64,000 nucleotides of DNA, from NCBI GenBank assembly GCA_030583745.1, contig CP129473.1, forward strand, positions 362,887 through 426,886. The letters are read 5' to 3'. The stretch comes from Minisyncoccota bacterium. Lineage in GTDB: Bacteria; Patescibacteriota; Minisyncoccia; Phycocordibacterales; BOKC01. Below are positions 323-62,154 of the stretch, in pieces (the first letter of the stretch is position 1; each line of letters begins with the position of its first letter). Position numbers and translations under genes: made by a program. The notes under the pieces are model-generated. The model was not told the origin of the DNA. It saw nothing but the letters and a program-made list of their open reading frames with translations, and made no database searches.

Positions 323-886
323 TTAACCAAGAATTTGCCTTATAGGTTCAATCCGGCTGGTGAAAGCGTTCCAACCGGTACTATCGCTGTAAACGGTTTG
401 CGAAATTTTTCCTCTCTCCGGCGCACTTTCGTTTGAAAATCCGACAGGCTGAAAGTTTATCAGTCGTTTAAATGGAGGAGGCGGAGGTGGTGGCGGAGGT
501 GGGGGTGGTGGCCCCGGCGGTGGCGGTGGAGGTGGTGGCCCCGGCAGTGGCGGTGGAGGTGGTGGTGGATTAAAAGCCAGAGGAGGAACAGGGGGAGAGG
601 GAGAATCATATGTCCTTGGAAAGGGGGTGGTCGGTTGTCTATACTGGTCTCGACGCAGAAGGATAGAGAGAAGAGAAGGTGGTAGGGGTTCATCAGAAGG
701 AGTGGTTATTCTATCAAACTCATCGTTTATCTTTGAGATGATGTCTGGGTCGGAGGCAAAGAGGATAAGCCAGGAAGAGACGGCGATTATGAGAAAGCCG
801 TAGAGAGAGATTTTTTCTCTTCTGTTGACTCCAGGTTTTGAAATAGCTCCGGTTGAGAGATACTCAATCGCATTCACGATTAACAT
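323..886 (-). CDS. Membrane-anchored proline-rich protein: N-terminal TM helix, ~55-residue near-pure polyproline tract, then a C-terminal domain.
   Basis: ORF track. Hydrophobic segment ISLYGFLIIAVSSWLILF. PPPPPPPLPGPPPPPPPPGPPPPPPPPPPPPPP is encoded by a GGN/CCN-rich imperfect direct repeat (~480-600). Confidence 0.5.
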   Translation of the reverse strand: MLIVNAIEYLSTGAISKPGVNRREKISLYGFLIIAVSSWLILFASDPDIISKINDEFDRITTPSDEPLPPSLLSILLRRDQYRQPTTPFPRTYDSPSPPVPPLAFNPPPPPPPLPGPPPPPPPPGPPPPPPPPPPPPPFKRLINFQPVGFSNESAPERGKISQTVYSDSTGWNAFTSRIEPIRQILG

Positions 887-1051
887 CAGGACGGCGACAA
901 GTCCGGAGAGAAGCAGAAAGATATTGAAAGTATCTAGGTTTAGGGTGTAGGTTTCGGGTTGGGCGGAAGAAATATCTGGCGCAGATAAGAGAAGAAATAA
1001 TAGTGAAATAAAAAAAAGTGTTTTTTTATCTGTCTTGGATGTTTCAAAAAA

Positions 1052-2509
1052 TTAGAAAAGATTAAAATAAGAAAATTTCAAAGTAAAAGGCAGAAATAGT
1101 TTAAAAATAACTCCCCCCTTAAAAGTCGTCCCGCCTTTGATCAAAGTTTTGACCGTGTCACTGCCCTCTCCTGGATCCCCCGGATCAACATACGGTACAG
1201 CAATCGTAAAAGACACCCACTGTTCGGAACTGGAAGTAAAAATATCAGGATCTTCTGTCTGAATTTCTCTGTGGCGTGTCGCCACAGATGTATCAACACC
1301 TGTATTAAAAGAAGTTGGCGATAAATACAAGAAATCCGTGTAATTAGCCGGCGGAGCAGAAACCCTGTGATCGCCATTAACATTCAAATCTCTTGAAACA
1401 GTCGCGATCCAAAGATATTTTCTTGAAGAGAGAGCGTTGTGAGAGGGCGGATTGGTATTGGTGCCGTCTCCGCCGAGCCCCGTCGCAGTCGGCGTCCCTC
1501 CTCTGTCAATAGCAAAAGATATATGTGTACTCTCTTCGCTCGCCGAAGTGGTGATGGTCAAATCATCAGCACTTCCACCATCAGCTATTTTGTAAAGTAT
1601 GGCGCCCTTGACGGTATTGGTACCAGAATTTACTTCTTCATCTAAAAGAATCCAATCATTTGTATCGTAACCAGAGAGTGTCGGATTGTTGCCGTGAACA
1701 GAAAATACAACTAAAAGTAATTGTCCAGTTTTAACCCCAGCTGGCAAACGAATCGCATGGCTAGTGGTATCTCCTCCGGAACGACCCCAATTTCTGGCTC
1801 TAATGGTTGGAAAACCTTCAGTTGCGTCAATAAGATAGGTAACATGAACTGCGCCGCCGCGACCAGTTCTTTGGGTTGAAGTGTTGCTACCACCACCTGA
1901 ACCATAATATCTGTGATTTTCCACTCCAGCACCACCAGAACCGCCGCCACCGAAATAATTACCGCCGCCGTTTGGTCCGGACGAGCCGGCGCCTTCCGTT
2001 CCGCCTCCACCACCACCGGATTTTCCGGAAGTTCCTTGATTACCGTTTCCACCATCAAAACCAAAGTCCCCTATTCCGGCGCTAGCTTTGCCTCCACCAC
2101 CACCATTTGTTCCGCCACCAAAACCACCCTGCGCATCAAGATATTTTGTGCCACCTCTCTCTACCGTTGTACTAGCCCCATTGTTCCCGCCAGCAGCACC
2201 TCCGGACCCAACCGTTATCGTATATTCTTGTGCAGCTTCAACAACCATAGTGGTTGACATAAAAGCTCCGCCACCACCAGCTCCGGCATTTTGAGAACCA
2301 CCGCCACCACCAGCCCAACCTTCAAAAGTTACTTCCGTAACTCCGGACGGCACTGTAAAAGTGCCGTTTGAAGTAAATGTTTCCACTCGCAGATGTCTTA
2401 AAGTCTCGGCTTCAGTAAAAAGTTTTGAGTAGGAAAAAATCGCAGTCAAAACAAAGACTGTGATTAGAGTAAAAATAATTTTTCTTTTGAAACTTTTTTG
2501 AGACTTCAT
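1052..2509 (-). CDS. Secreted glycine-rich domain protein, of the phage minor-tail/tail-fibre glycine-rich-domain type.
   Basis: Signal peptide/TM at N-terminus. Motif FTVPSGVTEVTFEGWAGGGGG followed by long GGxGG tracts typical of this family. Antisense ORFs inside are low-complexity artefacts. Confidence 0.55.
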   Translation of the reverse strand: MKSQKSFKRKIIFTLITVFVLTAIFSYSKLFTEAETLRHLRVETFTSNGTFTVPSGVTEVTFEGWAGGGGGSQNAGAGGGGAFMSTTMVVEAAQEYTITVGSGGAAGGNNGASTTVERGGTKYLDAQGGFGGGTNGGGGGKASAGIGDFGFDGGNGNQGTSGKSGGGGGGTEGAGSSGPNGGGNYFGGGGSGGAGVENHRYYGSGGGSNTSTQRTGRGGAVHVTYLIDATEGFPTIRARNWGRSGGDTTSHAIRLPAGVKTGQLLLVVFSVHGNNPTLSGYDTNDWILLDEEVNSGTNTVKGAILYKIADGGSADDLTITTSASEESTHISFAIDRGGTPTATGLGGDGTNTNPPSHNALSSRKYLWIATVSRDLNVNGDHRVSAPPANYTDFLYLSPTSFNTGVDTSVATRHREIQTEDPDIFTSSSEQWVSFTIAVPYVDPGDPGEGSDTVKTLIKGGTTFKGGVIFKLFLPFTLKFSYFNLF

Positions 2510-2532
2510 AAGTCTTTTTGAAAAATCGGAAT

Positions 2533-5500
2533 TTATAACTCTTCTTCTAAATCTAGCTCTGTTTCTGGTTCACCCTCAACAATCTCATTTTCCGGGCCCG
2601 CCCCAACACTAACTTTCTCTTCGTTTTCTTCACTACCGGTCTCTTCTTTTGATCCAATCTCATCCGCTTTGAAATCACCTTTGTTATCCGAGCCAACTTG
2701 ATCATCCGGATAATCAACACTACCACCACCACTTTTGAAAATTTGACATTCGCCCGGTGCTGAATTTACAACTCCACTGTTTATAGACAAACAATACGGC
2801 TCGCCGGTTATTGTATCGAATAAAGTTATACCTGCCGGATTTTCTCGGTTGCCGACCGTCAACTTTTCGGCAATCAAATTTTTGAAATAGGCAAATCCAT
2901 CCTGGATTTTAACACCAAGCATTTCAAAGTTGGTAAGAATATAATCAAAACCAAAACCGCCGGCATTTCCACCCTTTACAAAAGCTTCCAGATCAGAAAT
3001 TCTTTTTTCCAAATTCAAATCACCCTCACCAAAATAAAAGGTGTTGTTATTTATAAAAGTCATAATCTTACCGACTTCCCCATTAGAAGAAGGTGTGAAA
3101 TCTTCAAGCGCAACACCAACAACTCGGCCGGGTTTTGTGGCTTTCATCCCAATCCCAAGTCTTGATGACGAGGTGATGTAATCTCCGGCTTTTATCGGGC
3201 CGTTTTCGTCTGAAACCTTAACCGGCACCCGACCCATAACCCCAACCGGTATGTCATTTGTCTCTTCAATCCGGTAAGCTGTCGGGCTTTTGGATAGCGT
3301 ACCAATAATACCCGGTTTTGTTGAATAAACGCCCACTAAATTTGCCTGATAAACACCGTAAGATTTTTCAACCTTGCCGGGTTCCAGCTTTGAAGCCACA
3401 ACAATATCCCCCGGCTCGTATTCGGTCTTTAAACCAACAACAGTAAAAGCTTCGGCGTAGTCGGCCGGATTTGTAAGCGAGCCGTCAATTGCCACGTCGC
3501 CGTCGGAATCAACAGTAAATTTACGATTTATGACATCTCCGGTTGTCGTCGCAATTGTAAAAAGATAGGTATTGGCATTTGGCTGATTTGAGACAATTGT
3601 AAAATCTGCATCTGGAGTAGAAGTACCAACTCCAACTCGGACTACGTTGCCAGTTGCGCTTGTTTCAAAAACAATGTTACCAGCTGTTGCCGTACCAATA
3701 TGAGTAGTGCCGTTATCCAAAACTGAAAACAAAGTGGTTGAAGCATTATTAACCAACTCAAAAATTCTATTCGTGCCAGTACCGACCCCCCAGACCGTGA
3801 GCTTGCTGTAAGGTGTTGTCGTGCCAATTCCGACATTACCACCAAAATATGATTTGGTTGTACCACCAGTATAAATAGCAAAACGATTATTACCCCGAAC
3901 AATCTCGTCTATTCTTAATCCATAAACATTTGTCATAGTTCCAGATCCGGTAGTTGAAGGACTTCTAACTCTTATTCCAGAATAATCGGTAATTGCACCG
4001 GAACCACCCAAATACCAAATTGATTCTTCTATCTGCAGTCCAATATATTCAGTAATTGAAGCGTTATTGACTGTTAAACTACCTCTTTCACTCCAAACCG
4101 AAAGTCCTGTTGCCAAAGATATAGTTCCAAGTGCAGTAGAACCAAAATGTAATCCAACTCGTCCACCGGACAGACCACCAGGACCGGTTGTTAAAGTTAA
4201 GGCACCAGAACCGCTGTGCTTAGCAATTGACTGAAAAGCCATATTGGAACCAGAGTTTGAGCTAGAGCCAGTAAAATCTACTGCTGTTAGAAGGCCTCGC
4301 CTTTCTCCACTTGTGCCAGTTATTCCTTTAATTGTAACCAAGCGGTCAGTGTCGTTGGTGGGGCTGACGGGAAGATTTGTGGTGGCTCCGCCAAAATGAG
4401 AGTAGGTATTCATATTCCTTGAAACCTCAAGACCTCCCTCAGCTGTTAATTTGCCACTGACATAAGTCAGATCGGCAGATTCTGAAAGAATGCCGTCTGT
4501 GCTAACAAAAGGAACTCGATTGCTGGTAAAGGGGGTTCTAAAATTTCCGGTAAACCGAAGGTTTGTGAAAGTTGAAGTGGCATTACTAGAAGTGGCTGTA
4601 AAATATTCAGCAACCGCTTGTCCGACAACAGAAAGACGAGCGTAAGGGGAGGACGTGCCGATGCCAAAATTTATGCCATCAAAAACAAAACCGTCGGTAT
4701 CCGTCAAAGCATTACCCGAAGAATTGGTGTGAATAATCCTGTTTGCGGTAAAAGATGATTGTGTGTCTGTTAAACCAAGAAAAGTTGATACCCCACTTCC
4801 ACCACCAACACACACGCCATTTACCGCAAAACATCCGGTACGAATATCTATGCCGGAGCCAAAAGTTGAAGTCGCGGTAGTAGAAATATTTATCGTGTCA
4901 GGGCCAGTGTTGCCTAAAGAAAAAATTGTTCCCGGAGTAGTTGTGCCAATACCAATGTTCCCCAAGAAATATCCAGTTCCATCTTCAAGAAAAGCAGCCA
5001 AAGTAGTTGAAGAATTGTTGGTTAACTCAAAAAGCCGGCTTGCACCAGTGCCCGAACCCCAAACTGAAAATCTGGAGTAAGGAGACGAGGTGCCGACTCC
5101 AACATTACCATTAGAAAGTAGCGCCAAAACAGAAGCCGAGCTTTGCCCGATAAATTCAGCTATTTTACCGGCGCCACTTTGGGTAATTCTTAAAAATGTT
5201 GAAGCGGTGGAGGTTGAGTTTTCGGCATCGGAACGCAAAAATTGTGATGAGTTTAAGCCCGACAATTTGCCAGCTTCAAAAGCTGAGGGCACTGTGCCCA
5301 AAATTTTTCTCGGGGACATTTCATCATCGCAACCAGAAAGTCCAGACGTTCCACAAATCTCAACACCAAGGTAAAGAGTTTGGTTGAAGTTGACCGTTGA
5401 AAGCGGAGTGGAACTGCCAAGCATGACACTAAACAATCCATCGGTTACAGTTATCCGATCACCAGAATCTATACGGATTTCTTCCCAGATATTTGTAGTG

Positions 5501-5706
5501 GTAGCGCTAGTCGCAGTAGTATATAAACGAAATTTCATTATATAGTTACCATCAGGTACCGCCAGATTATTAGTGTCTGTCAATTTGCCTTGATAGTTTA
5601 TCTGCGAATTAAAATCAGCATAAGAGACAAAAGGCAGCAAGAAAAAAAATCCTGAAAAAACCAGAAAAGTATAAATCCGAATTTTTTTTCTAAGCAATAT
5701 TCTCAT
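2533..5706 (-). CDS. Large (1057 aa) secreted tail-fibre-like repeat protein with a Peptidase_G2 / intramolecular-chaperone-like C-terminal region and an acidic tail.
   Basis: Signal peptide. At least 5 repeats of the n(V/I)G(I/V)GT(S/T)(S/T)P....(L/F)(S/T)V.G motif. C-terminal ...PADYAEAFTVVGLKTEYEPGD...GVYSTKPGIIG resembles the ADYAEYFEW block of phi29-gp12-type G2 autoprocessing domains. Confidence 0.55.
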   Translation of the reverse strand: MRILLRKKIRIYTFLVFSGFFFLLPFVSYADFNSQINYQGKLTDTNNLAVPDGNYIMKFRLYTTATSATTTNIWEEIRIDSGDRITVTDGLFSVMLGSSTPLSTVNFNQTLYLGVEICGTSGLSGCDDEMSPRKILGTVPSAFEAGKLSGLNSSQFLRSDAENSTSTASTFLRITQSGAGKIAEFIGQSSASVLALLSNGNVGVGTSSPYSRFSVWGSGTGASRLFELTNNSSTTLAAFLEDGTGYFLGNIGIGTTTPGTIFSLGNTGPDTINISTTATSTFGSGIDIRTGCFAVNGVCVGGGSGVSTFLGLTDTQSSFTANRIIHTNSSGNALTDTDGFVFDGINFGIGTSSPYARLSVVGQAVAEYFTATSSNATSTFTNLRFTGNFRTPFTSNRVPFVSTDGILSESADLTYVSGKLTAEGGLEVSRNMNTYSHFGGATTNLPVSPTNDTDRLVTIKGITGTSGERRGLLTAVDFTGSSSNSGSNMAFQSIAKHSGSGALTLTTGPGGLSGGRVGLHFGSTALGTISLATGLSVWSERGSLTVNNASITEYIGLQIEESIWYLGGSGAITDYSGIRVRSPSTTGSGTMTNVYGLRIDEIVRGNNRFAIYTGGTTKSYFGGNVGIGTTTPYSKLTVWGVGTGTNRIFELVNNASTTLFSVLDNGTTHIGTATAGNIVFETSATGNVVRVGVGTSTPDADFTIVSNQPNANTYLFTIATTTGDVINRKFTVDSDGDVAIDGSLTNPADYAEAFTVVGLKTEYEPGDIVVASKLEPGKVEKSYGVYQANLVGVYSTKPGIIGTLSKSPTAYRIEETNDIPVGVMGRVPVKVSDENGPIKAGDYITSSSRLGIGMKATKPGRVVGVALEDFTPSSNGEVGKIMTFINNNTFYFGEGDLNLEKRISDLEAFVKGGNAGGFGFDYILTNFEMLGVKIQDGFAYFKNLIAEKLTVGNRENPAGITLFDTITGEPYCLSINSGVVNSAPGECQIFKSGGGSVDYPDDQVGSDNKGDFKADEIGSKEETGSEENEEKVSVGAGPENEIVEGEPETELDLEEEL

Positions 5707-7249
5707 AATTTATTTTAAAAATCCTCGGTCGAAATTTCCAAGCAACAAACAAAAGTATAAAAAGTAAAGATAGCCAGAACGTAATAGGTAGCCAAGGAAA
5801 ATTCGGAAACGCGATTGGTGGAAAAGGAAGAATTGATTTCAAAATTCCGTTTATCTTTCTTAGACCGCGATTTTTATGGTCAAGAACGGCGACATGAAGA
5901 CCAAAAGTCCCCTCTTCACCAAGTGGCGCAATGCTTGCCTCATAAGCGCTTCTATTTTCGTTCACCCGAAGCAAAAAACTAAAAACCAAAGATGGGTCAA
6001 CAGGGTGAGTTAGAGTAACAGTAAGAGTCTTTAGAACCTCCGGTACTTTTTCGTAAGGTAGGGAAACTTTCAAAGCTCTATCGCCATTTACAACAACGAT
6101 ATTACCTCTTTCAAGCTTGGCGATTTCGTCTCCTTGAATAAATTTGAAGTCTCCGAGCGTCAATCCCAAAAACATCGAATCAACACTCGAACGTGGCAAA
6201 TCAATCACTCCGGCAAACGGCTCCGGTGGAATTTCTCCCGGGATCAAAAGCTTACCTCTGACCAAAGCACCAGAAGAATAACGACCGCTTTTGTCTCTAA
6301 CAAAAACCGAATAAAAATAGTCTGTGCGTTTTTCAACTTTTGAATCAACAAATCTCTCCCCTCGGCCTTCATAAACTAAATTTCCGTCAAAAGGATCTTT
6401 AGGGAAAAATTTTGGCGAACGAATAATCCTGATATTCTCAAAATTAACTGAAGGATTTTTCCAAGTCAAAATTATCTTTTCCTCATCCGCAAGAGCTCTT
6501 AAGTTAGAAACATTGAAAGGAAATTCGGGAAAAGAAATAGTCTTAAACTGCTGATTGTCCAAAATAATTTTCCGACCGAGCGCATCAACAATCTCTAATC
6601 GGAAAAAATACAAGACGCCGGGGTCAAGGTCCAAAACAGTAATTTGATGATTCGTCTTAAAAACAGAAGAGGCCAGAGAGCCAATTTCATAATCCGGAGT
6701 TTTACCCCAAAATAATACCGTTTTTGAGGGGATATTAGTTTCCAAATTTATGACTGCTTGATATAAATCCGGCTCTACGGAGAAATTTAAGACTTTCAAA
6801 AAAACATATTGACCTGTTTGACCGCGAGCTTGTTCTTCTTCCTCCTCTTCATCCAAAGGAAAAGTGGTGGCTGAAGCAGGATCAGATAACGGGCTGTCAG
6901 CCCCGGAGGTGTCAAAGGCCGAAACTTTGTAAGTATACAAAGTGTTTGGAGAAAGACCGGTGTCGCTATAAGAAGTTCCAGAAGTGGTATCAATCTCTAC
7001 GTCATCCCTGAAAATTTTATAACCATTTACAGGCAGATCACCCTCAACCGCCGCATCCCAAGTCAAATTTATCCCTGAAGTGGAAACAGCAATAGCCGAA
7101 AGATTTTGTGGCGCTTCGGGTGGATTTTCTACAGTAATTATCTGACTGACCTTGAACTGACTTTCAGATTGTGCAGAAACAATTAAAGCTAAGAAAGCAA
7201 AGCTGGCTATTAAAATCTTTATTTGGAATGTAAGAAAATTTAATTTCAT
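5690..7249 (-). CDS. Fibronectin type III domain protein with signal peptide and C-terminal TM anchor.
   Basis: FN3-like block NLSAIAVSTSGINLTWDAA...YTYKVSAFDTSG. N-terminal signal peptide. C-terminal hydrophobic helix WLPITFWLSLLFILLFVAW. 17-nt overlap with upstream gene. Confidence 0.55.
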   Translation of the reverse strand: MKLNFLTFQIKILIASFAFLALIVSAQSESQFKVSQIITVENPPEAPQNLSAIAVSTSGINLTWDAAVEGDLPVNGYKIFRDDVEIDTTSGTSYSDTGLSPNTLYTYKVSAFDTSGADSPLSDPASATTFPLDEEEEEEQARGQTGQYVFLKVLNFSVEPDLYQAVINLETNIPSKTVLFWGKTPDYEIGSLASSVFKTNHQITVLDLDPGVLYFFRLEIVDALGRKIILDNQQFKTISFPEFPFNVSNLRALADEEKIILTWKNPSVNFENIRIIRSPKFFPKDPFDGNLVYEGRGERFVDSKVEKRTDYFYSVFVRDKSGRYSSGALVRGKLLIPGEIPPEPFAGVIDLPRSSVDSMFLGLTLGDFKFIQGDEIAKLERGNIVVVNGDRALKVSLPYEKVPEVLKTLTVTLTHPVDPSLVFSFLLRVNENRSAYEASIAPLGEEGTFGLHVAVLDHKNRGLRKINGILKSILPFPPIAFPNFPWLPITFWLSLLFILLFVAWKFRPRIFKINYENIA

Positions 7250-7258
7250 ATATTCAAT

Positions 7259-8116
7259 TTAAAGAGTGACGGCGGTTAAGGTTGTGGTCGCTACGTAAGT
7301 ATCCGGCAAAAGAATCGGGTTGTGATTTGCAGAGACTATTGCCCTGAAACGCAGAGTCGAAGTCGCGCCGGAGATCGGTGTTCTTGATGTCGTACTAATT
7401 ATCGTCCTTGGTGTGGTGGTCGCCGAAATCCAGCAGTTATCGTCGGTTTCAGTTGAGCCGGTGTTGCAGGCATTCGAACCATTGTTCCTAAATGCGGCCA
7501 CAATTTCACCGGTTGTTGAGGCATTGATGGTATAAGCAAACGCCGAAGAATTCGCTGGTGCCGAATTAAAATTAAAATCCGGCACCTCCGGAGTAGCGGT
7601 GTTTAGATGAAAAATGGTACCAGCATTTTCATTTCCAATCATGCCGTCATCAGAATCGGTTTTTATGGTGACAGAGAAACCAGCGGCATTATCGGTCTTT
7701 ACAATAAACTGAGCACCACCATTTGAAGTCCCCCCAGTCAATCCGCCCAACGCCGGAGACAAAGTGATATCGTCAACAGAAGTAATTGATATAAACACCC
7801 CCTGCATTTGCTGATATCCGGCTTTGAGTCTATAAGACGCGCTTTCAGAAATACCGGTTGCCAATTCACCAATCGTACTTTCTTCAAAATAATTTGCACT
7901 TTGAGACCTAAGACCGCCGATATTCAGACTATCACTCTGCACTCTATAGCTATTACTCTCCATCACAAATGCACTAACTTCAATATAAAAAAACACGGCA
8001 AGCAACAAGCTAAAGAAAAGTGTTGTTATTGTTGCGTTTTTCTTTTTTTTTTGGTTTCTTTGAAAAGACATATTCCACAGCTTGTCCACAAAATTAAATC
8101 TTTTGAAACTTGTCAA
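7259..8116 (-). CDS. Secreted Thr/Ser-rich beta-rich protein, paralog of 9286..10053 (unknown family).
   Basis: Signal peptide. Shared blocks LSPxLGGLTGGTSNGGxQF(I/V)V and GSxACNTGS...CWISAT (conserved Cys pair) with the paralog. Confidence 0.5.
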   Translation of the reverse strand: MTSFKRFNFVDKLWNMSFQRNQKKKKNATITTLFFSLLLAVFFYIEVSAFVMESNSYRVQSDSLNIGGLRSQSANYFEESTIGELATGISESASYRLKAGYQQMQGVFISITSVDDITLSPALGGLTGGTSNGGAQFIVKTDNAAGFSVTIKTDSDDGMIGNENAGTIFHLNTATPEVPDFNFNSAPANSSAFAYTINASTTGEIVAAFRNNGSNACNTGSTETDDNCWISATTTPRTIISTTSRTPISGATSTLRFRAIVSANHNPILLPDTYVATTTLTAVTL

Positions 8117-8217
8117 GTCTTAAACCATTTGCTAGCTTTAGTACAACAAAAGACCTCGTAGTTAGAGTTTCAATTGGTCTTGGGACCCGCTCGGGTCTTT
8201 TGTTTTTTTGTAATATG

Positions 8218-9276
8218 TTATCTTTGTTCATCCATTGGCTTTTTTCTAAATTCAAATCTCTTGGTTAAAAATCTAATAGTAAGAACCAAAATAAGCACAA
8301 TGATAAGGAAAACAAGTATTAATTTCCAAGGCAAAACAAAAAATATAAAACTCTCTTCATCAATGATGTCGTTATAACTACGGTTTACAAAAGCGTGAGC
8401 ATTGTAAACACCGAAAGCCCATCCCGTTTCCCAGACAACCTCTCGCAAACGCAAAGAGTCAGGCATAGAAAACCAAGGATCCATCTCAATTACTTCAACC
8501 TCTTTACCAAGAACGTTATTTATCCGAATCTCGCCATAAGGAGCAAGGTGGATACTTCCGGAATTCTCAAACAAGATTTCAAATGGTACCGGAGTCGAAC
8601 CAAAAATTCTTTTCCCGGCTTTTGTCCTAAAGGTTTGCATTTCCCCCTCCTCATCTACCTCTCCCGGTATTCTTACAAAAAAGAGAGTACCGATTCTTGA
8701 AATGATGGCTGCCCCACCTCTGACATCTCCGTCGCCTCGCTCTGACGGCTTTGACACTGTACTGATTACAACACTGCCGTATCGACCCCCAGGTTCTTCA
8801 TCATAAGGAATTGAAACTGTTATTGGGATTCTTGCCCTCTCTCCGTGTTTCAAAGAAAATTCAAAAGCTGGCACTTTGATGTAATCTTTCAAGGAATAGG
8901 GGCCTCTTTCGCTCCCCAATAAAATAACTGTCTGGTCAGAACTCCTTGAACCGGTAAAATCTTCTATTTCTATGAGAAAGATCCTTTCCTCACCCATTCT
9001 GTTTGTGACATCCAATTTGAAATTTCTGGTTTCTCCAGGAGTAAGTGAGGCATCAAATTTTCCAGGCCCAACAACAAAATCACCGAGAACACCAACATTT
9101 TCTCCTAAACTTTCAATGCTAATTTCTGTATTCCGAACGAAAGTATTGTTTGGCTCTTGAGAAAATACTGTTGAGGCCGGAAAAATCAGCGCAAAACTCC
9201 CAAGCAATAAAGCTGAAAAAACAAATAATATTAACGCCGGTAAACTAAGTTTTTTATCTTGAAATTCAGAATTCAT
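8218..9276 (-). CDS. Cell-surface protein with signal peptide, ~270-aa ectodomain, C-terminal TM anchor and short basic cytoplasmic tail.
   Basis: N-terminal signal peptide LSLPALILFVFSALLLGSFALIF. C-terminal LILVFLIIVLILVLTIRFLTKRFEFRKK. Architecture reminiscent of DUF916/CscA-type anchor proteins (analogy only). Confidence 0.5.
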   Translation of the reverse strand: MNSEFQDKKLSLPALILFVFSALLLGSFALIFPASTVFSQEPNNTFVRNTEISIESLGENVGVLGDFVVGPGKFDASLTPGETRNFKLDVTNRMGEERIFLIEIEDFTGSRSSDQTVILLGSERGPYSLKDYIKVPAFEFSLKHGERARIPITVSIPYDEEPGGRYGSVVISTVSKPSERGDGDVRGGAAIISRIGTLFFVRIPGEVDEEGEMQTFRTKAGKRIFGSTPVPFEILFENSGSIHLAPYGEIRINNVLGKEVEVIEMDPWFSMPDSLRLREVVWETGWAFGVYNAHAFVNRSYNDIIDEESFIFFVLPWKLILVFLIIVLILVLTIRFLTKRFEFRKKPMDEQR

Positions 9277-9285
9277 ATTAATTTA

Positions 9286-10053
9286 TTATTTCATTGTTGC
9301 GGTCAGCGTGGTTGTCGCAGTATATGTATCAATCGGCAGAAGCGGATCCGGATTCTCTCTTACTACCACTCGGAAAAAAATAGTTGAGGTCGCGCCGTAA
9401 AAATCAGTGTTGGTATTACTGTCCAATATCGTAAATGGGATTGACGAAGTGGCGGAAATCCAACACTTTAAAGCCGCTTGATTAGAACCTGTGTTGCAAG
9501 CCGAACCATTATCCTTGAATTTTGTCGCGAGATAATCGGTAGAAGAAGCGTTTACGGTGTAGGCAAATCTAGCCGTGTTAACAGCAACCGTCGTATCATC
9601 AAAGTCAAAATCCGGAACACCAGGTGTCGTCTCTACAAGATGTGGAATGACTCCAGCGGTCGATTCTCCCTCCATCCCGTTTGTGGAAGAGGCGGTTAGA
9701 GTTACGGTCCAACCAGCAGTATTATTGGTCATAACCACAAATTGCGTCCCACCATTTGAAGTTCCACCGGTCAAACCTCCAAGAGAGGGGCTCAAAGTCA
9801 CATCCGACGGCGCGACCTTAAATGTTATTTCAGCAGTTATGCTCTGGCTTATTTCAAACTGTCCGGAACCTCTTGTTATGTTTGGTTCAACATAAGCAAA
9901 ACCAATTGGCACCAACAAAGCAGAGACCATCGTAATCGCTAAGCTTTCTTTGAATAATTTTTTGAAACTAGTCATCTTAAATTTTGAATTAATAAAGCTA
10001 ATAATAAGTTGTTTGTTTCTAATAAATTCGACTTTTTTGTTTTTATCTTTCAT
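9286..10053 (-). CDS. Secreted Thr/Ser-rich protein, paralog of 7259..8116.
   Basis: Signal peptide. Conserved blocks shared with the paralog. Confidence 0.5.
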   Translation of the reverse strand: MKDKNKKVEFIRNKQLIISFINSKFKMTSFKKLFKESLAITMVSALLVPIGFAYVEPNITRGSGQFEISQSITAEITFKVAPSDVTLSPSLGGLTGGTSNGGTQFVVMTNNTAGWTVTLTASSTNGMEGESTAGVIPHLVETTPGVPDFDFDDTTVAVNTARFAYTVNASSTDYLATKFKDNGSACNTGSNQAALKCWISATSSIPFTILDSNTNTDFYGATSTIFFRVVVRENPDPLLPIDTYTATTTLTATMK

Positions 10054-10099
10054 CTTTAAAATTAATTAAACTTCTAATTTGAAAACAAATTTTAACACA

Positions 10100-10999
10100 C
10101 TATTTTTTGGGAACCATCACATAAAAATATTCCTCTTCGGTCGGTTCGGCAAAAACTGGTTTTATTACTCCGGCTACCCCACTCTCATCCGGCACAAATT
10201 CAATCTCGTCAGAAAAAGAATCTCTCAAATAATTTTTTACCTTGGAAAAGGCGTCAGAGTTTTCATTACTGTGAATTGGGATAGTCACAACTCCTCTCTC
10301 ATCTAATGTCAAAGAGGAAAAATTATTTTCTGCGACAGCATTATCTTTTTTTGCGATTTTATTTTTAGAACTCAAGAAAGAAAAGGATTTAGAAAATTTT
10401 TCAAAACCACTCTTCATAACAAATTTAAAATTATCCGAACCTCTTTTGACTGCATCTTTTATGGACGAGCTTGAAAATTCGGGATTCACAATTTTTATTA
10501 GATCAGTCGTCATGGATTGAAAACTATCAGCAACAATCGGCTCTCCTTTTTTCAAGACATTAGCAACATCAAAAACCAAGACAGAGACCGAAACAACAAC
10601 AAAAACTGCAATAAAAAAATTGGAGACTGTTCTTTGTAAAGAAAAGTTTCTAGCTAGTCGATCAGCTATTAAAGACTCACTTCTTAAAGATTGAAAAACT
10701 ATCTTTTGATTATCGTCAAAAAATCCTTCCGATTTCAGACTAGTTGTCTTGAGTTCTTTATTAGATACTTCACGGATAAGCGGGGACGATTTCTTCCTAC
10801 CTGATTTCAGGTGGTTAATAAGAGAGCTTTCTTCAACAAACCAAGTCCTGCTAACCAACCGACAATCCAGTTTACCTGCTCGACAAAGCTGTCCGAGATA
10901 ATCAGAATTATAGCCACTTTTTTTTGAAACTCGGCTAGCCGAGATATATTTCTTGCCTTCTAAATTTAACTCTTTTTCCACCACTAAATTATAATGCAA
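10100..10999 (-). CDS. Membrane protein with N-terminal HTH_17 (MerR/excisionase-type) DNA-binding motif, single TM and C-terminal extracytoplasmic region.
   Basis: KKYISASRVSKKSGYNSDYLGQLCRAGKLDCRLV resembles the HTH of 11290..11523. Hydrophobic stretch FFIAVFVVVSVSVLVF. Confidence 0.4.
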   Translation of the reverse strand: MHYNLVVEKELNLEGKKYISASRVSKKSGYNSDYLGQLCRAGKLDCRLVSRTWFVEESSLINHLKSGRKKSSPLIREVSNKELKTTSLKSEGFFDDNQKIVFQSLRSESLIADRLARNFSLQRTVSNFFIAVFVVVSVSVLVFDVANVLKKGEPIVADSFQSMTTDLIKIVNPEFSSSSIKDAVKRGSDNFKFVMKSGFEKFSKSFSFLSSKNKIAKKDNAVAENNFSSLTLDERGVVTIPIHSNENSDAFSKVKNYLRDSFSDEIEFVPDESGVAGVIKPVFAEPTEEEYFYVMVPKK

Positions 11000-11289: not shown

Positions 11290-11523
11290 ATGGAGAGAAA
11301 GTTTATAACTATAAAACAAGCATCTGATATTCTTGGAGTCTCAACCCTAACCCTTAGAAATTGGGACAAGAGTGGTAAGTTTAAAGCTCTAAGGCATCCA
11401 ATAAACAACTATCGGGTTTACGAATTGTCAGAAATAGAGAGATTAATTTCCGAGATGAAAAACGCCAACAACCAGAGATTCGGTAAACGGACGAAAAAAC
11501 TTGAAATAAAACACCTGGATTAA
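11290..11523 (+). CDS. Small HTH_17 / excisionase-family (MerR-like) DNA-binding protein.
   Basis: ITIKQASDILGVSTLTLRNWDKSGKFKALRH...YRVYELSEIERLI is a classic helix-turn-helix. Divergent from 10100..10999 across an AT-rich intergenic region. Confidence 0.7.
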   Translation: MERKFITIKQASDILGVSTLTLRNWDKSGKFKALRHPINNYRVYELSEIERLISEMKNANNQRFGKRTKKLEIKHLD

Positions 11524-18189: not shown

Positions 18190-19212
18190 TTAAAAATCAA
18201 ATTCACCAACTAAAATAATTTCTCTCTCCAAAGTAATTCCGGTTTTTTCTTTCACATCTTTAATTATCTTGTCAGTTGTATTTTTGATTTCAGAAGACAA
18301 AGCTTCACCAAGATTAACTACAACTAGCGGTTGGTCTTTAAAAAATTCGACCTGCCCAAAAATTTTTCCTCGAAGGTTGAAAACTTTATCCAAAATCCAA
18401 GCCGCCGGAATCTTAAACTCTCCGCTTTGGTTTTCAAAGTAAGGTAAATCCGGATAATTCTTTAGTATCGATTCCAATTTTTCTCTACTAACAATCGGAT
18501 TTTTAAAAAAAGACCCGGCAGTGCCAAACTTGTTAAGATCTGGAAACTTCCGACCTCTGATATAAAGGACTGCTTCTCTTACCTCTTTCAAGCTTGGCGA
18601 ACGATCCAAAAAATATTCTTTCAAGTCTTTATAAGACAAATTGGGTGCACCTTTTTTCTTTAAAGAAAAACAAACGCGGGTGATAATCAAACTCCCTACA
18701 CCCAACTCTTTAAAAATACTTCCTCGATAAGAAAAACGGCAATCCCCCTTGGAAAGTTTTTTGATTTTATTGTCTGCCCTATCAAAAACTTCAACCCAAG
18801 AAAGATGGTTTTTGATTTCGGATCCGTAAGCGCCGATGTTTTGGACTGGCGCCGCTCCAACCGTGCCGGGAATTCCGGACAAATTTTCCAAACCATAAAG
18901 ACCCCTTGAGACTGATTGTTCAACAAGTTTGTCCCAAGACTCACCAGCTGAAGCCACAACATCAATCTCCTCGTCACGTCCTAACCATTCAATTCCCTTG
19001 AGACTGATTTTTATAACAAGACCCGGAAAACCGTTGTCCGAGACTAGAATGTTTGAACCGCCACCTAAAACAAGAACCGGCAATCCTTTCTCTTTGGCAA
19101 ATTGAAGTACGTCTGGCAATTCATCTACCAAATTTATCTCTGCGAAATATCTTGCTTCGCCACCTGTTTTAAAAGTATTGAAAGATTTAAGAGATACGTT
19201 TTCCTTTATCAT
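18190..19212 (-). CDS. murB: UDP-N-acetylenolpyruvoylglucosamine reductase.
   Basis: FAD-binding N-terminus LKSFNTFKTGGEARYF...LVLGGGSNIL. Start trimmed to MIKENVSL (19212); ORF-track extension to 19407 covers leader hairpins. Confidence 0.85.
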   Translation of the reverse strand: MIKENVSLKSFNTFKTGGEARYFAEINLVDELPDVLQFAKEKGLPVLVLGGGSNILVSDNGFPGLVIKISLKGIEWLGRDEEIDVVASAGESWDKLVEQSVSRGLYGLENLSGIPGTVGAAPVQNIGAYGSEIKNHLSWVEVFDRADNKIKKLSKGDCRFSYRGSIFKELGVGSLIITRVCFSLKKKGAPNLSYKDLKEYFLDRSPSLKEVREAVLYIRGRKFPDLNKFGTAGSFFKNPIVSREKLESILKNYPDLPYFENQSGEFKIPAAWILDKVFNLRGKIFGQVEFFKDQPLVVVNLGEALSSEIKNTTDKIIKDVKEKTGITLEREIILVGEFDF

Positions 19213-19220
19213 AAAACAAC

Positions 19221-19297
19221 GCCAAGTCATGACCGGCCGCTGCGAGCTCCAAAACAAATGTCTTATATGAGTGCTAACGGCCGGCCATGACTTGGCA
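19221..19297. repeat. GC-rich 19-bp inverted repeat (gccaagtcatgaccggccg / cggccggccatgacttggc, 18/19 match) with ~39-nt spacer, immediately upstream of the murB start.
   Basis: Seen in sequence. GC-rich in an AT-rich context. Confidence 0.6.
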
Positions 19298-19352
19298 CAG
19301 TCATTATAGTATAACAAAACAAGCATAAACGAACAAAAGGGTACGAAAAACC

Positions 19353-19380
19353 CGCCGTGAAGCGGGGTTTTCGCAGACAT
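19353..19380 (-). terminator. Rho-independent terminator (aaaacccgc-cgtgaa-gcggggtttt) downstream of the 19448..21625 gene.
   Basis: GC stem flanked by A/T runs. Confidence 0.55.
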
Positions 19381-19447
19381 TCGTTTATTTTGGAGTGCGC
19401 TACGCACTCACACTTCTCTAGTATATCAGAAAACAAAAAAAATGCAA

Positions 19448-21625
19448 CTAATTTGCCAAGAGCCCGGCTCCCCTGCCGGCTCGAATCTCGGAAATGGCAT
19501 AATCAGCAGTTTCCTTAAAATTCGGGTCAATCTCAACTATTTTCTCCAATTCTTCTATGGCTTTCGGCCAATTTCTCAAAGACAGATAAGAAGCGACAAG
19601 GGCTTGGCGCGATTCTAAATTTTCCGGCTCAAACTCAACTCTCTTCTGCCAAATTTCTAAAACTTTTGAATACTGTTTTATTTCCGCTAAAGTATTCAGG
19701 AGTCGATCGTCAAAATATTTGACGGAGTCAGGTAATATCTCCCATTCAGAATTAGCTTCCGATAATCTGTCGTTTGCAAGAAGAGCCATCAAGTAAAATG
19801 TTCTGGATTCTGGATTTTCCGGCCATAAGTTTTTTGCGGATTCCAACACTTCCATCGCTTCCTCGAACCGACTGGCAGAAAACAGGGTTGAGGCAATTTC
19901 AAAATAAATACTTTGTTTTTTTGGTGAGAGTTTAGAAGCTCGCTCCAGCATCTCAAGAGACCTGTCATATTGCTCCACCTGCCTGAAAAAAACTCCGGAA
20001 GATATCAAAACTCTTGCATCAAGCGGAAACCTTTCTGTCTGAACAGATATTCTATCTTGAGCTAAGTTGAAAAAATCAAGCTTCAACTCTTCAGGGTTGT
20101 CGCTAGCAATCACCATAGACGCCTTGTTTAAAAAATGAATTAGCCCCTCTTGATTGCCAAAAGTATTGTAACTAAAAAATTTCTTGAAATGCTCTAAGCT
20201 GTCTTGATTTGCTGTTTGAGGATGTATGGCATCAATAATCGTTTTTGCCGCTAGTATTGGCTTGTAATGAAGAAAATAACCTGAAATAAAAAACACGGCG
20301 ACAAGAGCAGACAAAATTATCGTCTTGGCGTGAGCAAAAGACAGACCGGCAAACGGTAGTTTTATTGATTCCCCCGGCGTGCTCTTATAGCAGATAAAAG
20401 CCAGAATTGAGAACAAAAGAATATAACTCGTCAAATTATCAAAATCAAATATCCCCTGAAACAAATACGCGGCTAGAAATCCGGACAAAACACTTTTTTC
20501 TAAAATAGAAAAATTGGGTGTTTTCCAAAGATAAAAAATAGAAGAAAAAATAATCAATAAGAAAAATAGAAGCGCCAAAATCCCACCGGCAACAAGCCAG
20601 TCAAGATAAACATTATGAACGCGATCAAACCATGGCTCATGACCATACATTGCCGGATTGTAGTTTTCACTAAAGATGTGGATAAAATTTTCCTGACCAT
20701 AACCAAGAATCGGCCTTTCTTTAAAGCCCTCAATCGCCATCGGCCAGACAAAATAGCGTCCCTGTTCTTTTATCCCCTCAAGAGAAATAGTGGAAAACCT
20801 GGATAGAACTGGGCTCTCTTTTACAAAAGACGAGTCTTTGAAAAACCAAAACGCTCCAAGAAAAACCAATAAAAGAAGCAATAAAACTAGAGATTTTTTC
20901 CTAAGACTTTTATGCTCTTTTCCAAATACAAGTAAGAGAAAAAATGTGACTGCTAGGCCGAAAATCAAAGCTAGAGTTACACCTCTTGTCGCGGTGTTGT
21001 ATAGAATAAAGACCTGCGTCGCAATCAAAAACAAATAGAGATATCGATAGTTGTCGCGCCTCTGAAAGAAATAAAAAATCCCGATAAAGATATGGAACAT
21101 TAAATAAACTGCCAAATAGATAGCGTTGCCAAGTGTTCCGTCCAACCTAACCCCACCTTGCCTTATATCAACCGACCCCACAAGCTGAAGAAAGCTATAG
21201 AAACATATGATTGCACTTGTCACTAAAGAAACGTGGAAAAATATCTTCCAGTCTTTTTCTTTCAGAACCGAGATCATAACTACAAACAACCCAACCAAGT
21301 AAAATAGGGTGATCAATCCTTCCATTCTTTCAAAAGTTGACCAAAAGCTTCTATACGGGTCAATCCCGAAAACAGCTGAAAAGACAAGAACTACCAAAAA
21401 AGAAACGGTTGAATACAAAATCCATGATTTTTTTGGTAAATATTCTTTATTTAAAAATACAAGACCAATCCATGACAAGAAAACAATACTAACAATTATC
21501 CTGAAAGCAAACGCCTTACCGGTTATAAAAGGAAAAAACAAGGAATAGCTTATAATAAGAGGGATGAAAGGAATCAACATTAATCCCGTCACAACAAGAG
21601 TCTTTAAAATTTTCTCCGAGTTCAT
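19448..21625 (-). CDS. O-antigen ligase/polymerase (Wzy_C)-like polytopic membrane protein with C-terminal TPR repeats.
   Basis: >=10 TM helices. Block GYGQENFIHIF...HNVYLDWLVAGGILAL typical of Wzy_C/O-antigen ligase. C-terminal TPR-like helices. Confidence 0.6.
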   Translation of the reverse strand: MNSEKILKTLVVTGLMLIPFIPLIISYSLFFPFITGKAFAFRIIVSIVFLSWIGLVFLNKEYLPKKSWILYSTVSFLVVLVFSAVFGIDPYRSFWSTFERMEGLITLFYLVGLFVVMISVLKEKDWKIFFHVSLVTSAIICFYSFLQLVGSVDIRQGGVRLDGTLGNAIYLAVYLMFHIFIGIFYFFQRRDNYRYLYLFLIATQVFILYNTATRGVTLALIFGLAVTFFLLLVFGKEHKSLRKKSLVLLLLLLVFLGAFWFFKDSSFVKESPVLSRFSTISLEGIKEQGRYFVWPMAIEGFKERPILGYGQENFIHIFSENYNPAMYGHEPWFDRVHNVYLDWLVAGGILALLFFLLIIFSSIFYLWKTPNFSILEKSVLSGFLAAYLFQGIFDFDNLTSYILLFSILAFICYKSTPGESIKLPFAGLSFAHAKTIILSALVAVFFISGYFLHYKPILAAKTIIDAIHPQTANQDSLEHFKKFFSYNTFGNQEGLIHFLNKASMVIASDNPEELKLDFFNLAQDRISVQTERFPLDARVLISSGVFFRQVEQYDRSLEMLERASKLSPKKQSIYFEIASTLFSASRFEEAMEVLESAKNLWPENPESRTFYLMALLANDRLSEANSEWEILPDSVKYFDDRLLNTLAEIKQYSKVLEIWQKRVEFEPENLESRQALVASYLSLRNWPKAIEELEKIVEIDPNFKETADYAISEIRAGRGAGLLAN

Positions 21626-21712
21626 GAGCCCAATATATCATGAAAAATTAAGTGCGGATAGTATGTCATAATACAAACGTAACCCGTTAAAAATCCTCGC
21701 GGGATAAAGCAT

Positions 21713-22969: not shown

Positions 22970-23157
22970 CTAACATCTAATCTATAAAAAAGATCTCAGC
23001 CGATTATGACTGAGACCTATACTAGTTAGCTCTCTCCCAGCAGGAAAGGCGAGTATCTTCTTCAACTCTTCTGAAACCGATAGACTCGACAATCCTGATG
23101 TGGTATTCGTACAGTTCAAGCGAAAAACCAAGTATTATCGGCAGAATCTAAATAAAT

Positions 23158-23958: not shown

Positions 23959-23972
23959 AAAATAAACTTATC

Positions 23973-25631: not shown

Positions 25632-25636
25632 AAAAA

Positions 25637-26926: not shown

Positions 26927-27012
26927 TTTTTTATCTAATTTCTAAGCTAAAGTATTAGATATTATACAAAACTTCTTTGCTTATTGAAATTTAAAAAACC
27001 AAGAAATAAATT

Positions 27013-27047
27013 TGACAAAAAAATGATTTTGACTTATGATTAAGTCT
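27013..27047 (+). promoter_or_regulatory. Sigma70-like promoter for the 27117 gene (ttgaca -17 nt- tatgat).
   Basis: Seen in sequence. Confidence 0.4.
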
Positions 27048-27116
27048 GTTGTTCTTCGTCGTCTCATTTACCTGAAATCTTGATCTAGGAGGTGTCCCCT
27101 GATATCCGAACAAGTC

Positions 27117-27683: not shown

Positions 27684-27703
27684 TCTCCCGACCATAAGTG
27701 AAA

Positions 27704-27737
27704 AGGGGTGTCCTTAACCGGGCACCCTTTATTTTTT
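27704..27737. terminator. Hairpin plus T-run terminator (gggtgtcc-ttaacc-gggcaccc tttatttttt), overlapping the 3' end of the convergent cytidylyltransferase gene.
   Basis: Seen in sequence. Confidence 0.55.
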
Positions 27738-37127: not shown

Positions 37128-37129
37128 TT

Positions 37130-62110: not shown

Positions 62111-62154
62111 TCACCCGCCCATCAATTTTTAAATACTTTATTTACCGTCCAAAG

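Follow-up and report, generated by a model that had tools for sequence, protein, structure and literature searches.

Little is known about the means by which bacteria of the Candidate Phyla Radiation (CPR, Patescibacteria) recognise their host cells and keep hold of them, and the majority of their surface proteins carry no annotation; the systems that come closest to the locus reported here have been described in other organisms. In Ca. Mycosynbacter amalyticus, two pili have been solved and the pam operon has been described: the Pam pilins assemble through donor-strand exchange, the chaperones PamC and PamD carry a C-terminal transmembrane (TM) helix, PamT is the tip pilin, and PamR, with an FnIII domain, a C-terminal TM segment and an extra N-terminal strand, is the proposed terminator and tether of the filament; "a tail fibre-like protein" is consistently co-localised with pam operons (Troman et al. 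2026, bioRxiv 10.64898/2026.03.03.709456). In Bdellovibrio bacteriovorus, the MAT (mosaic adhesive trimer) fibres consist of a signal peptide, followed by a conserved, β-rich N-domain of ~130 amino acids (aa), an intertwined trimeric shaft with the capping loop V-G-G/N-pi-x-x-P-x-x-x-L, and tips that are swapped between members, the ends being S74 or non-S74 (Caulton et al. 2024, PMC10769870). Here, we compare these systems with an operon from a Paceibacteria (CPR/Patescibacteria) bacterium, located in a stretch of 64,000 nucleotides (nt), hereafter the window, that is identical to the GenBank metagenome-assembled genome "Candidatus Paceibacterota bacterium" (locus proteins WKZ26152-WKZ26157); our main subject is its 1057-aa fibre protein, which resembles the MAT fibres and carries a chaperone domain of the kind found in the phage phi29 protein gp12.

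At positions 323-10999 of the reverse strand, eight open reading frames (ORFs) run in one direction, overlapping or separated by gaps of 9-165 nt, with gatB located upstream; in the order of transcription, they encode proteins of 299, 255, 352, 285, 519, 1057, 485 and 187 aa. As judged from hydropathy only, each of the eight products has a hydrophobic segment, N-terminal or internal, and the 352-aa and 519-aa proteins have an additional C-terminal TM segment. The initial annotation of the window, made by a model from the sequence alone, had described genes 5-7 (the 519-aa FN3 protein, the 1057-aa fibre and the 485-aa Gly-rich protein) as three consecutive secreted proteins that form a phage-tail-like module. 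An N-terminal hydrophobic segment is indeed present in all three, and the FN3 protein has, besides its export segment, a C-terminal TM segment that had gone unnoticed; the module itself has to be redrawn, as the three genes belong to an operon of eight, of which they form the 3' half and a Pam-like cassette the 5' half. We favour, with a probability of roughly 60%, the reading that these three genes make up the distal half of a surface-appendage operon of eight genes, encoded by the host, in which a Pam-like cassette that ends with an FN3 membrane anchor is followed by a MAT-like fibre with a gp12-type chaperone. The genes that carry this reading are the following:

9286..10053 (-): pilin-like protein 1, 255 aa; candidate donor strand GQFEISQSITAEITF at the mature N-terminus
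8218..9276 (-): chaperone-like protein, 352 aa; signal, immunoglobulin-like (Ig-like) domain of WxLIP type, C-terminal TM segment at nt 8248-8358
7259..8116 (-): pilin-like protein 2, PamT-like, 285 aa if started at a TTG codon; the ATG at 8071 is the more probable start and gives 270 aa
5690..7249 (-): FN3 membrane anchor, PamR-like, 519 aa; signal, N-terminal strand, FN3 domain, β domains, TM segment, short basic tail
2533..5706 (-): MAT-like fibre protein, 1057 aa, from its ORF; its start overlaps the stop of the anchor gene by 17 nt

Each of these parts is known in kind, i.e. the gp12/G2 chaperone, the MAT-like mosaic fibres, the Pam-like pilus and the Gly_rich_2 domain of the protein that follows the fibre; as a system, the locus is not new in kind, and the literature already records part of the association. 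The earlier statement that such CPR modules are essentially uncharacterised has to be tempered by the tail fibre-like protein that the 2026 preprint had noted beside pam operons. The combination of an exported bacterial fibre that has a gp12-type rather than an S74 chaperone with a compact Pam-like cassette, in Paceibacteria, the fibre gene being linked to the gene of the pilus anchor through translational coupling or fusion, has not been found in the literature that we have searched. One operon here joins the CPR-specific Pam pilus (2026), mosaic fibres of the type that Bdellovibrio uses in prey recognition (2024) and the intramolecular chaperones of phages, and offers candidates for the host-specificity determinants of uncultured episymbionts.

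The fibre protein is divided as follows:

nt 5617-5706 (-): signal peptide, from hydropathy
5182..5616 (-): N-domain, aa 31-175, β-rich and MAT_N-like, immediately after the signal peptide
3466..5181 (-): shaft, aa 176-747, with five GxGT..P loop motifs
nt 3847-4584 (-): central region of the shaft, aa ~375-620, lineage-specific; a duplicated shaft unit flanks it, one copy on each side
3031..3462 (-): module A, aa 749-892, gp12-type (Peptidase_G2-like) intramolecular chaperone domain that starts with D749-Y-A-E752
2536..3027 (-): post-chaperone tail, made of a helix, module B and an acidic disordered tail
nt 2974-3027 (-): tail helix, EGDLNLEKRISDLEAFVK
nt 2737-2964 (-): module B, small β domain with Cys972 and Cys987, GITLFDTITGEPYCL
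nt 2536-2736 (-): acidic disordered tail

The C-terminal domain of phi29 gp12 is an intramolecular chaperone that is required for the folding of the trimer and is afterwards released by autoproteolysis, with ATP as an aid; the D-x-x-E residues at the scissile bond (S691/D692-F-A-E695) have a catalytic role. A block of the fibre, ADYAEAFTVVGLKTEYEPGDIVV, located at aa 748-770 (ADYAE at nt 3451-3465; the span ADYAE...EPGD at aa 748-766), had been likened to domains of this type, and the likeness is corroborated by three independent lines that give the same fold and the same motif register, by which aa 749-892 are assigned to the gp12-type intramolecular chaperones. A profile of 24 module A sequences matches the phi29 pre-neck appendage protein in the Protein Data Bank (PDB; 3gqh at E 0.0056, 6qz9 at 0.0098, 3suc at 0.039), and the alignment places the D-L-A-E of the family, D749-Y-A-E752 in this fibre, on D692-F-A-E of gp12, the start of the cleaved fragment. 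The Pfam family Peptidase_G2 matches 10 of the 24 relatives at E<=1 (best 7e-6). Finally, the best Foldseek match of module A is 3suc, i.e. the C-terminal autochaperone fold of gp12. The prediction that a Pfam search of this ORF would return Peptidase_G2 or Peptidase_S74 was partly right: the former is found below the threshold, the latter is absent, with neither a PF13884 match nor an S-D-x-x-x-K motif in the fibre. When the whole 1057-aa protein is searched against Pfam, no Peptidase_G2 match is obtained at E<=0.1.

Compared with gp12 of the Bacillus phage phi29 (MEROPS/Pfam Peptidase_G2, PF11962; PDB 3GQH, 3SUC), the fibre shares the D-x-A-E at the start of the domain, at the gp12 cleavage site, as well as the position of the chaperone C-terminal to a repetitive, β-structured shaft; it differs in being a Sec-exported bacterial protein rather than a virion protein, and in having module A followed by a helix, the disulfide-containing module B and an acidic tail. 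With the S74 fibres and endosialidases (phage K1F, T5 pb1) and the "tail fiber domain-containing" proteins of Patescibacteria it has in common a C-terminal intramolecular chaperone for what would be a trimeric β fibre, and paralogues of this fibre have S74 in the place of module A; the gp12-type domain that is used here is unrelated to S74. A chaperone domain of the phi29 gp12 type, hitherto a phage feature, thus takes the place of S74 in some exported fibres of bacteria.

By analogy with gp12, the fibre probably cleaves itself between A748 and D749. Such cleavage is not a given for module A, because in some relatives the module is internal, with shaft repeats resuming beyond it, and the DxAE motif is missing in 3 of the 24 relatives. 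It is somewhat unlikely, on balance, that module A is instead a permanent, trimerising "knob", like the related capsid cement or decoration proteins of phages, with module B and the acidic tail retained distally; the internal copies speak for such a knob, as does the conservation of module B and the acidic tail after module A or S74, which would be odd for a discarded propeptide, while the profile alignment, which puts DxAE where the cleaved gp12 fragment begins, the retention of DxAE in 21 of the 24 relatives, and the location of module A in the slot of the self-cleaving S74 domain of the paralogues point to cleavage. In the relatives, module B occurs downstream of module A or of an S74 domain and is always followed by an acidic tail that has no anchor. 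Module B has the pattern GITLFD..TGEPYCL...G.C with one disulfide, and the tail after it is acidic, rich in Pro and Thr, and anchorless.

The fibre belongs to a modular family of more than 707 relatives with lengths of 600-1800 aa, of which the named ones are nearly all from Patescibacteria, several being named "tail fiber domain-containing protein". The ~370 aa at the N-terminus are common to more than 100 of 120 homologues, which diverge in the middle and towards the C-terminus: the central region (aa ~375-620) is present in the closest four or five relatives only, modules A (aa ~745-890) and B (aa ~899-990) are found again close to the C-terminus in many of the relatives, and 26 different Pfam families occur across 48 relatives, among them Peptidase_S74 (12 of 48), LVIVD, YadA head, BNR, LamG, Kelch, beta-helix/NosD, GDSL lipase and phage tail collar. 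Judging from these domain contents, the family is a mosaic with a constant N-terminus.

The similarity of this mosaic to the Bdellovibrio MATs is strong in logic and sub-threshold in sequence. The NCBIfam model NF053851 (Bdello_MAT_N) matches the N-domain of this fibre with an E-value of 0.0029 and 24 of the 48 relatives, the best at 4.4e-10; the AlphaFold2 (AF2) monomer model gives this domain confidently as β-rich, with a predicted local distance difference test (pLDDT) score of 80-96. The shaft carries five copies of the motif [VIF]G[IV]GT..P...[LF], at aa 202, 251, 347, 625 and 691, as had been read from the sequence initially in the form VGIGTTxP; the residues G-x-G-T-x-x-P are near-invariant among the 48 relatives, and the motif (V/I/F-G-I/V-G-T-x-x-P-x-x-x-L/F) resembles the capping-loop motif of the MATs, being one residue longer than the published consensus. 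A shaft unit with two of these motifs is duplicated (aa ~199-265 and ~620-705, BLASTP E 1e-21). The two systems have in common a signal peptide with a conserved, β-rich N-domain of ~130-145 aa, a long repetitive shaft with a G-x-x-P loop motif, a large family in which distal modules are swapped and which has S74 and non-S74 members, and a bearer that lives through contact with other bacteria. They differ in that the N-domain similarity is weak (4.4e-10 at best in the family, 0.003 for this fibre), a terminal chaperone of gp12/G2 type has not been reported for MATs, the present organism is a monoderm CPR bacterium, and its fibre gene is coupled to a pilus anchor gene. The matches of the full-length monomer model in BFVD have very low TM-scores, and we have given them little weight.

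Host-cell adhesion is the most likely function of the fibre. That it would mainly be an enzyme-bearing tailspike, i.e. a depolymerase that acts on a surface polymer of the host or of the cell itself, seems to us quite improbable: the Pfam, NCBIfam, PHROGs and PDB sequence searches have revealed no catalytic domain in the 1057-aa protein (the PDB search with the entire protein gave no match), and the central region is without a recognisable family. What could be cited for an enzyme are the GDSL lipase, BNR, right-handed beta-helix/NosD and lactonase-type modules of some relatives and the case of phi29 gp12, an enzyme that degrades teichoic acid.

We turn to the cassette that precedes the fibre. 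Its pilin-like protein 2 matches the NCBIfam model NF058579 (CPR_pilus_PamT) with an E-value of 1.1e-10, and the same model matches all 20 orthologues tested (best 1.4e-13), all of them far below the equivalog cut-off; we regard the protein as a clear PamT homologue, not an equivalog, and have found 472 relatives of it in Patescibacteria. Pilin-like protein 1, which has a C-terminal domain of ~170 aa with a conserved Cys pair, is a paralogue of pilin-like protein 2 (52% identity across the C-terminal 160 aa, Cys pair conserved) and a candidate for the major pilin. NCBIfam gives no match to Pam models other than PamT in the cassette proteins, and the profile of the pilin family finds nothing meaningful in a PDB set that was without Pam structures. 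Similarities to the Pam operon are the PamT-related protein, the chaperone-like protein with a C-terminal TM segment (the architecture of PamC and PamD), the anchor with FnIII, TM segment and extra N-terminal strand, the export signals on all components and the co-localised tail fibre-like protein. In contrast, the core is here a compact one of four genes, compared with at least seven named Pam components, with no PamA, PamB or PamE that could be recognised by sequence; the anchor is larger (519 aa, compared with 32.8 kDa for PamR), and the organism is one of the Paceibacteria, whereas the emphasis of the preprint is on Saccharimonadia and Microgenomatia.

The 519-aa protein has the architecture of PamR, with the following elements:

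nt 7130-7165 (-): N-terminal strand, ESQFKVSQIITV
nt 6869-7114 (-): FN3 domain, aa 46-127 (Pfam E 3.4e-14)
nt 5729-5803 (-): TM segment, aa 483-507, from hydropathy

All 20 anchor orthologues that were searched match fn3, and every anchor has, just past the signal-peptide site, a short strand of alternating hydrophobic residues (here SQFKVSQIITV) that in this genome resembles the N-terminal strand of pilin 1 (GQFEISQSITA); the strand motif occurs in 34 of 67 pilin 1 proteins, in none of the 67 pilin 2 proteins and in none of 814 unrelated ORFs. A strict regular expression for the shared strand is matched by only 3 of the 67 anchors, and a comparison based on scores was used instead: the mean BLOSUM62 score of the anchor strand is 18.0 with pilin 1 of the same genome, 14.6 with pilin 1 of other genomes and 9.7 with unrelated N-termini, and none of 5000 permutations of the genome pairings (57 loci) reaches the same-genome mean, in what is a rough, indirect test. 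This co-variation is consistent with both strands sharing one acceptor groove, i.e. with donor-strand termination. The FN3 protein, which had been counted among the phage-appendage hallmarks, is by these features a universal member of the cassette (FN3 domain, C-terminal TM segment, pilin-like N-terminal strand) and a PamR-like membrane anchor, not a part of a phage. Its identification as a phage decoration or tail protein was considered and rejected, the PHROG matches being those of generic FN3 domains.

The chaperone-like protein links the cassette with the WxL/WxLIP clusters of Firmicutes (Hassan et al. 2023, PMC10599100): it matches the WxLIP peptidoglycan-binding Ig domain (Pfam WxLIP_PGBD, E 1.6e-4), as do 16 of its 20 orthologues (best 2.5e-7), and the EfmWxLIP1 structure of the PDB (E 0.09), and two Ig domains with a C-terminal TM segment are common to WxLIP and to its own architecture, the fold being predicted from sequence. 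These matches, together with the hairpin that WxLIP inserts into its partner, could mean that the cassette is a WxL-type complex bound to the cell wall, with the FN3 protein and the fibre being wall-associated, rather than a pilus. We regard this as improbable, since pilin 2 has a relative, PamT, in a pilus that has been imaged experimentally, Pfam finds no WxL domain in the pilin-like proteins or the other cassette partners, and the N-terminal strand that is shared by pilin 1 and the anchor suits polymerisation by strand exchange; moreover, WxL complex and pilus may be one and the same homologous system, described from two sides. The similarity, which concerns the upstream cassette only, suggests that the Pam cassettes of CPR bacteria and the WxL clusters are related.

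In order to describe how the fibre is linked to the cassette, we have scanned one genome per species with the PamT-like family, which has yielded 78 loci, almost all labelled Patescibacteria. According to the mapping with hidden Markov models, the core of pilin 1, chaperone-like protein, pilin 2 and anchor occurs in the same order and on the same strand in ~70 species, i.e. in essentially every sufficiently long locus. In the 63 loci that have room after the anchor, the next gene is:

MAT_N fibre: 17 loci
in-frame fusion of anchor and MAT_N fibre: 4 loci
other large protein: 2 loci
shorter ORF: 40 loci

As MAT_N fibres follow or are fused to the anchor in 21 of the 63 loci and only four other MAT_N genes are located in the flanks (~1.2 Mb), the slot after the anchor is strongly enriched for fibres, in a count over species that are not independent of one another. 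The four fusions (L025:2224-6933, L033:10771-13560, L037:5110-8817 and L047:10894-14616 in the numbering of our loci) read, in order, the anchor ectodomain, a TM segment, a short basic loop, a second hydrophobic segment that ends with A-x-A, and the fibre N-domain; with this topology, the anchor and fibre parts would both be located outside the cell. Fusions of this kind are Rosetta-stone-like evidence of a functional link.

Two types of loci can be distinguished. In type I, to which the present locus belongs, housekeeping genes and a homologue of the 299-aa gene (51 ORFs) precede the core, and the fibre follows it; in type II, a fibre, a giant ORF (1000-2700 aa) or both are located ahead of the core, and GAPDH follows (L018, L024, L027, L030, L035, L041, L052, L060-L062, L069, L072-L074 and L084). 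The giant ORF of the type II loci often has, on its own upstream side, a fibre that carries either module A or S74. In L005, a gene for a 138-aa protein of the 23S_rRNA_IVP family (PF05635, an Avd-like four-helix bundle; 9588-10004) is located between the anchor and fibre genes, and no reverse transcriptase has been seen in this 25-kb locus.

The enrichment and the fusions bear on the question of where the fibre is attached. We consider it a doubtful, if attractive, possibility that the fibre is mounted on the pilus or its anchor, the MAT-type N-domain docking on the PamR-like FN3 protein or its filament, which would make the whole a hybrid host-capture organelle. If so, the fusions in four species would be Rosetta-stone evidence of contact between the N-domain and the anchor, the anchor or the pilus would turn out to be what MAT N-domains bind at the surface, a partner that has long been sought, and, as a corollary, the Pam cassette and the WxL/WxLIP clusters of Firmicutes would be one ancient monoderm surface-assembly system. 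An equally tentative alternative is a free-standing, MAT-type adhesin, held on the envelope by its N-domain, with the adjacency reflecting only co-regulation or a hotspot of surface proteins. This alternative would account for the 40 of 63 cassettes that stop at the anchor and continue with GAPDH, for the giant ORFs and fibres that the type II loci place upstream, and for the lack of relatedness in hhalign comparisons among the profiles of the N-domain, the pilins, the chaperone-like protein, the anchor, module A and the C-terminal domain of the Gly-rich protein (probabilities <1%); the contexts of a minority of the more than 707 family members have been examined. It is less easily reconciled with the next-gene counts, the 17-nt overlap of the two genes in the window, and the single anchor-fibre frames of four species, with their topologically sensible TM hairpin. 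In any case, the repeated coupling and occasional fusion of the two genes makes the anchor a candidate partner for the conserved N-domain of the fibres.

The locus is encoded by the host and is not a prophage, in agreement with the suggestion of the initial annotation. We have inspected the neighbouring genes with Pfam and PHROGs, the genes of the window and the syntenic relatives, and capsid, terminase, portal, tail-tube and integrase genes are found in none of the scanned window genes or syntenic relatives, which extends the earlier remark that no capsid, terminase or integrase gene is visible nearby. In the identical and related contigs, the order secA ... gatB, MerR and then the eight genes is conserved, and in a more distant relative the fibre is followed by host genes, namely those of a PATR protein, a TPR protein, MurJ and LepA. 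IMG/VR contigs match only the shaft of the fibre, with 24-40% identity, and a search of 50,697 phage genomes yields matches to four cyanophage tail fibres alone, the shaft being once more the matching part; overall, the phage matches of the shaft have 24-48% identity, while the N-domain of the fibre has no match in these genomes, nor do module A and the C-terminal domain of the Gly-rich protein in a tblastn search. Thus, the similarity of the locus to phages appears limited to shaft repeats or to the fold. A remnant of a prophage tail module is a very improbable explanation: it would fit the PHROG tail-category matches of the Gly-rich and FN3 proteins, the phi29-type chaperone fold and the shaft repeats that are shared with cyanophage tail fibres, and is opposed by the missing structural, packaging and integration genes, the export signals on all proteins, the conserved location between gatB and housekeeping genes, the unmatched N-domain, module A and Gly-rich C-terminal domain, and a scan for repeats that has revealed only the low complexity of Gly and Pro codons, with no attachment-site-like or diversity-generating-retroelement-like repeats.

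Several findings weigh against the reading of the locus as a Pam-like cassette with an anchor and a MAT-like, gp12-type fibre. The matches on which its family names are based are below the curated cut-offs: 16.6 bits (E 0.0055) for this fibre with Peptidase_G2 (PF11962), where the gathering cut-off is 25; 17.4 bits with MAT_N, where it is 60; and 41 bits for pilin 2 with PamT, where the equivalog cut-off is 240. The proteins are therefore distant relatives and not members by the criteria of the curators. Module A is located ~165 residues before the end of the fibre, unlike the chaperone of gp12, and has the internal copies and the three losses of DxAE that have been mentioned above. In the monomer model, the pLDDT of the shaft is below 50, and a model of this kind gives no information on a trimeric shaft. 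A major pilin of the PamA/PamB type is not recognised by sequence, there are no ATP synthase genes nearby, such as the preprint reports near pam operons, and in 40 of the 63 loci the cassette ends at the anchor without a downstream fibre, the shorter ORF being nearly always GAPDH. Lastly, the fibre belongs to a family with many members, of which a minority have been examined in their context, and it may act apart from the pilus.

The domains, the fold of module A, the operon with its synteny, and the enrichment and fusions of the fibre gene are observed; assembly, cleavage and function are inferred from them. On the reading that we favour, the operon would work as follows. All of its products would be exported by Sec, and the cassette would assemble a short-operon, Pam-like filament through strand complementation, aided by the membrane-tethered chaperone. 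The FN3 protein would cap the filament, its mature N-terminal strand mimicking that of pilin 1 and thus being able to complete the last subunit, and its C-terminal helix would tether the filament in the membrane. The shaft of the fibre most likely folds as a trimer that is nucleated by the C-terminal gp12-type chaperone; a cut between A748 and D749 would then free a fragment of ~33 kDa (chaperone, helix, module B and acidic tail) and leave a mature fibre of ~75 kDa. The N-domain of the mature fibre would sit at the surface of the producing cell, while the variable, lineage-specific region of aa ~375-620, a likely ligand-binding region, would be presented to the host cell. An operon of this kind would be likely to equip an episymbiont for finding and holding its host cells.

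The gene that follows the fibre gene, 23 nt downstream, encodes a protein that had been grouped with the fibre and the anchor:

1052..2509 (-): Gly-rich accessory protein, 485 aa; N-terminal hydrophobic segment, Gly_rich_2 domain at nt 1853-2374, C-terminal domain of ~205 aa at nt 1145-1834

The glycine-rich domain that had been described in this ORF, with the stretch FTVPSGVTEVTFEGWAGGGGGS, is confirmed by Pfam Gly_rich_2 (PF21722, E 2.6e-8, above the gathering score); the protein also matches phrog_863 (E 7e-14), and the PDB search with it returns glycine-linker artefacts only. The grouping holds insofar as the three genes are tightly packed, and fails insofar as the Gly-rich protein follows the fibre in the nearest relatives only, a PATR protein being found in its place in the next relative (L005); we treat it as a lineage-specific accessory surface protein. 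Its C-terminal domain, for which Pfam has no model, finds 2324 cluster representatives at E<=1e-3 and 864 at E<=1e-10 in an exhaustive search, in proteins of 169-3739 aa that have up to five copies each; the partners among 60 such proteins are Gly_rich_2 (12), PG_binding, GDSL, Ig-like, LamG, beta-helix and a type IX secretion system (T9SS) sorting tail, and some of the proteins match phage tail PHROGs. From these partners, the domain appears to be a building block of surface and phage-tail proteins. In many proteins it begins at residue 2, i.e. a signal peptide is lacking there.

The remaining genes of the operon and the regulator-like gene next to it are:

11290..11523 (+): MerR/HTH_17-type gene, 77 aa, from its ORF, divergent from the operon
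10100..10999 (-): operon gene 1, 299 aa; helix-turn-helix-like (HTH-like) N-terminus, one TM segment (aa 123-151), extracytoplasmic C-terminal part
323..886 (-): possible operon gene 8, 187 aa; one TM segment and a poly-proline tract

The 77-aa gene is a possible regulator of the operon, and its counterpart, with Pfam MerR/HTH_17, is located between gatB and the operon in the relatives. The 299-aa protein has no match in the Pfam search; its HTH-like N-terminus is of the excisionase/MerR type and is followed by the TM helix, and the 299-aa and 77-aa products may be, respectively, membrane-tethered and soluble regulators of the operon. A scan of the DNA for promoters and terminators gave counts no higher than those expected by chance and has therefore been left out of the argument. 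ORF 323..886 is weakly supported as a genuine gene, a homologue having been found in one close relative (L007). Independent assemblies of the same and of close strains (L001, L007, L008 and L125) all end within a few hundred bases of the Gly-rich gene, downstream of it, and the break is located at or near a low-complexity tract that encodes poly-Pro/poly-Gly, at ~470-575 of the window.

Some further features of the window are located outside the operon. A 2177-aa protein (35921-43663, -) with SpvB, FG-GAP and RHS repeats resembles the polymorphic toxins of the Rhs/Tc type, and the 251-aa protein directly downstream of it has a Tse2-type ADP-ribosyltransferase toxin domain; from these domains, the pair may form a system for contact-dependent intoxication that is encoded by a CPR genome. 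A set of surface-glycan genes is located at 18190-31202 and 43825-48407, with MurB, a Wzy_C ligase with TPR, a NeuB sialic-acid synthase, an aminotransferase, an ABC exporter and three paralogous proteins of ~480 aa, two of which have Capsule_synth. Lastly, a fourth tRNA-like match (62054-62118, -), which Rfam scores with 41 bits and ARAGORN does not report, is located between tRNA-Leu and tRNA-Ile.

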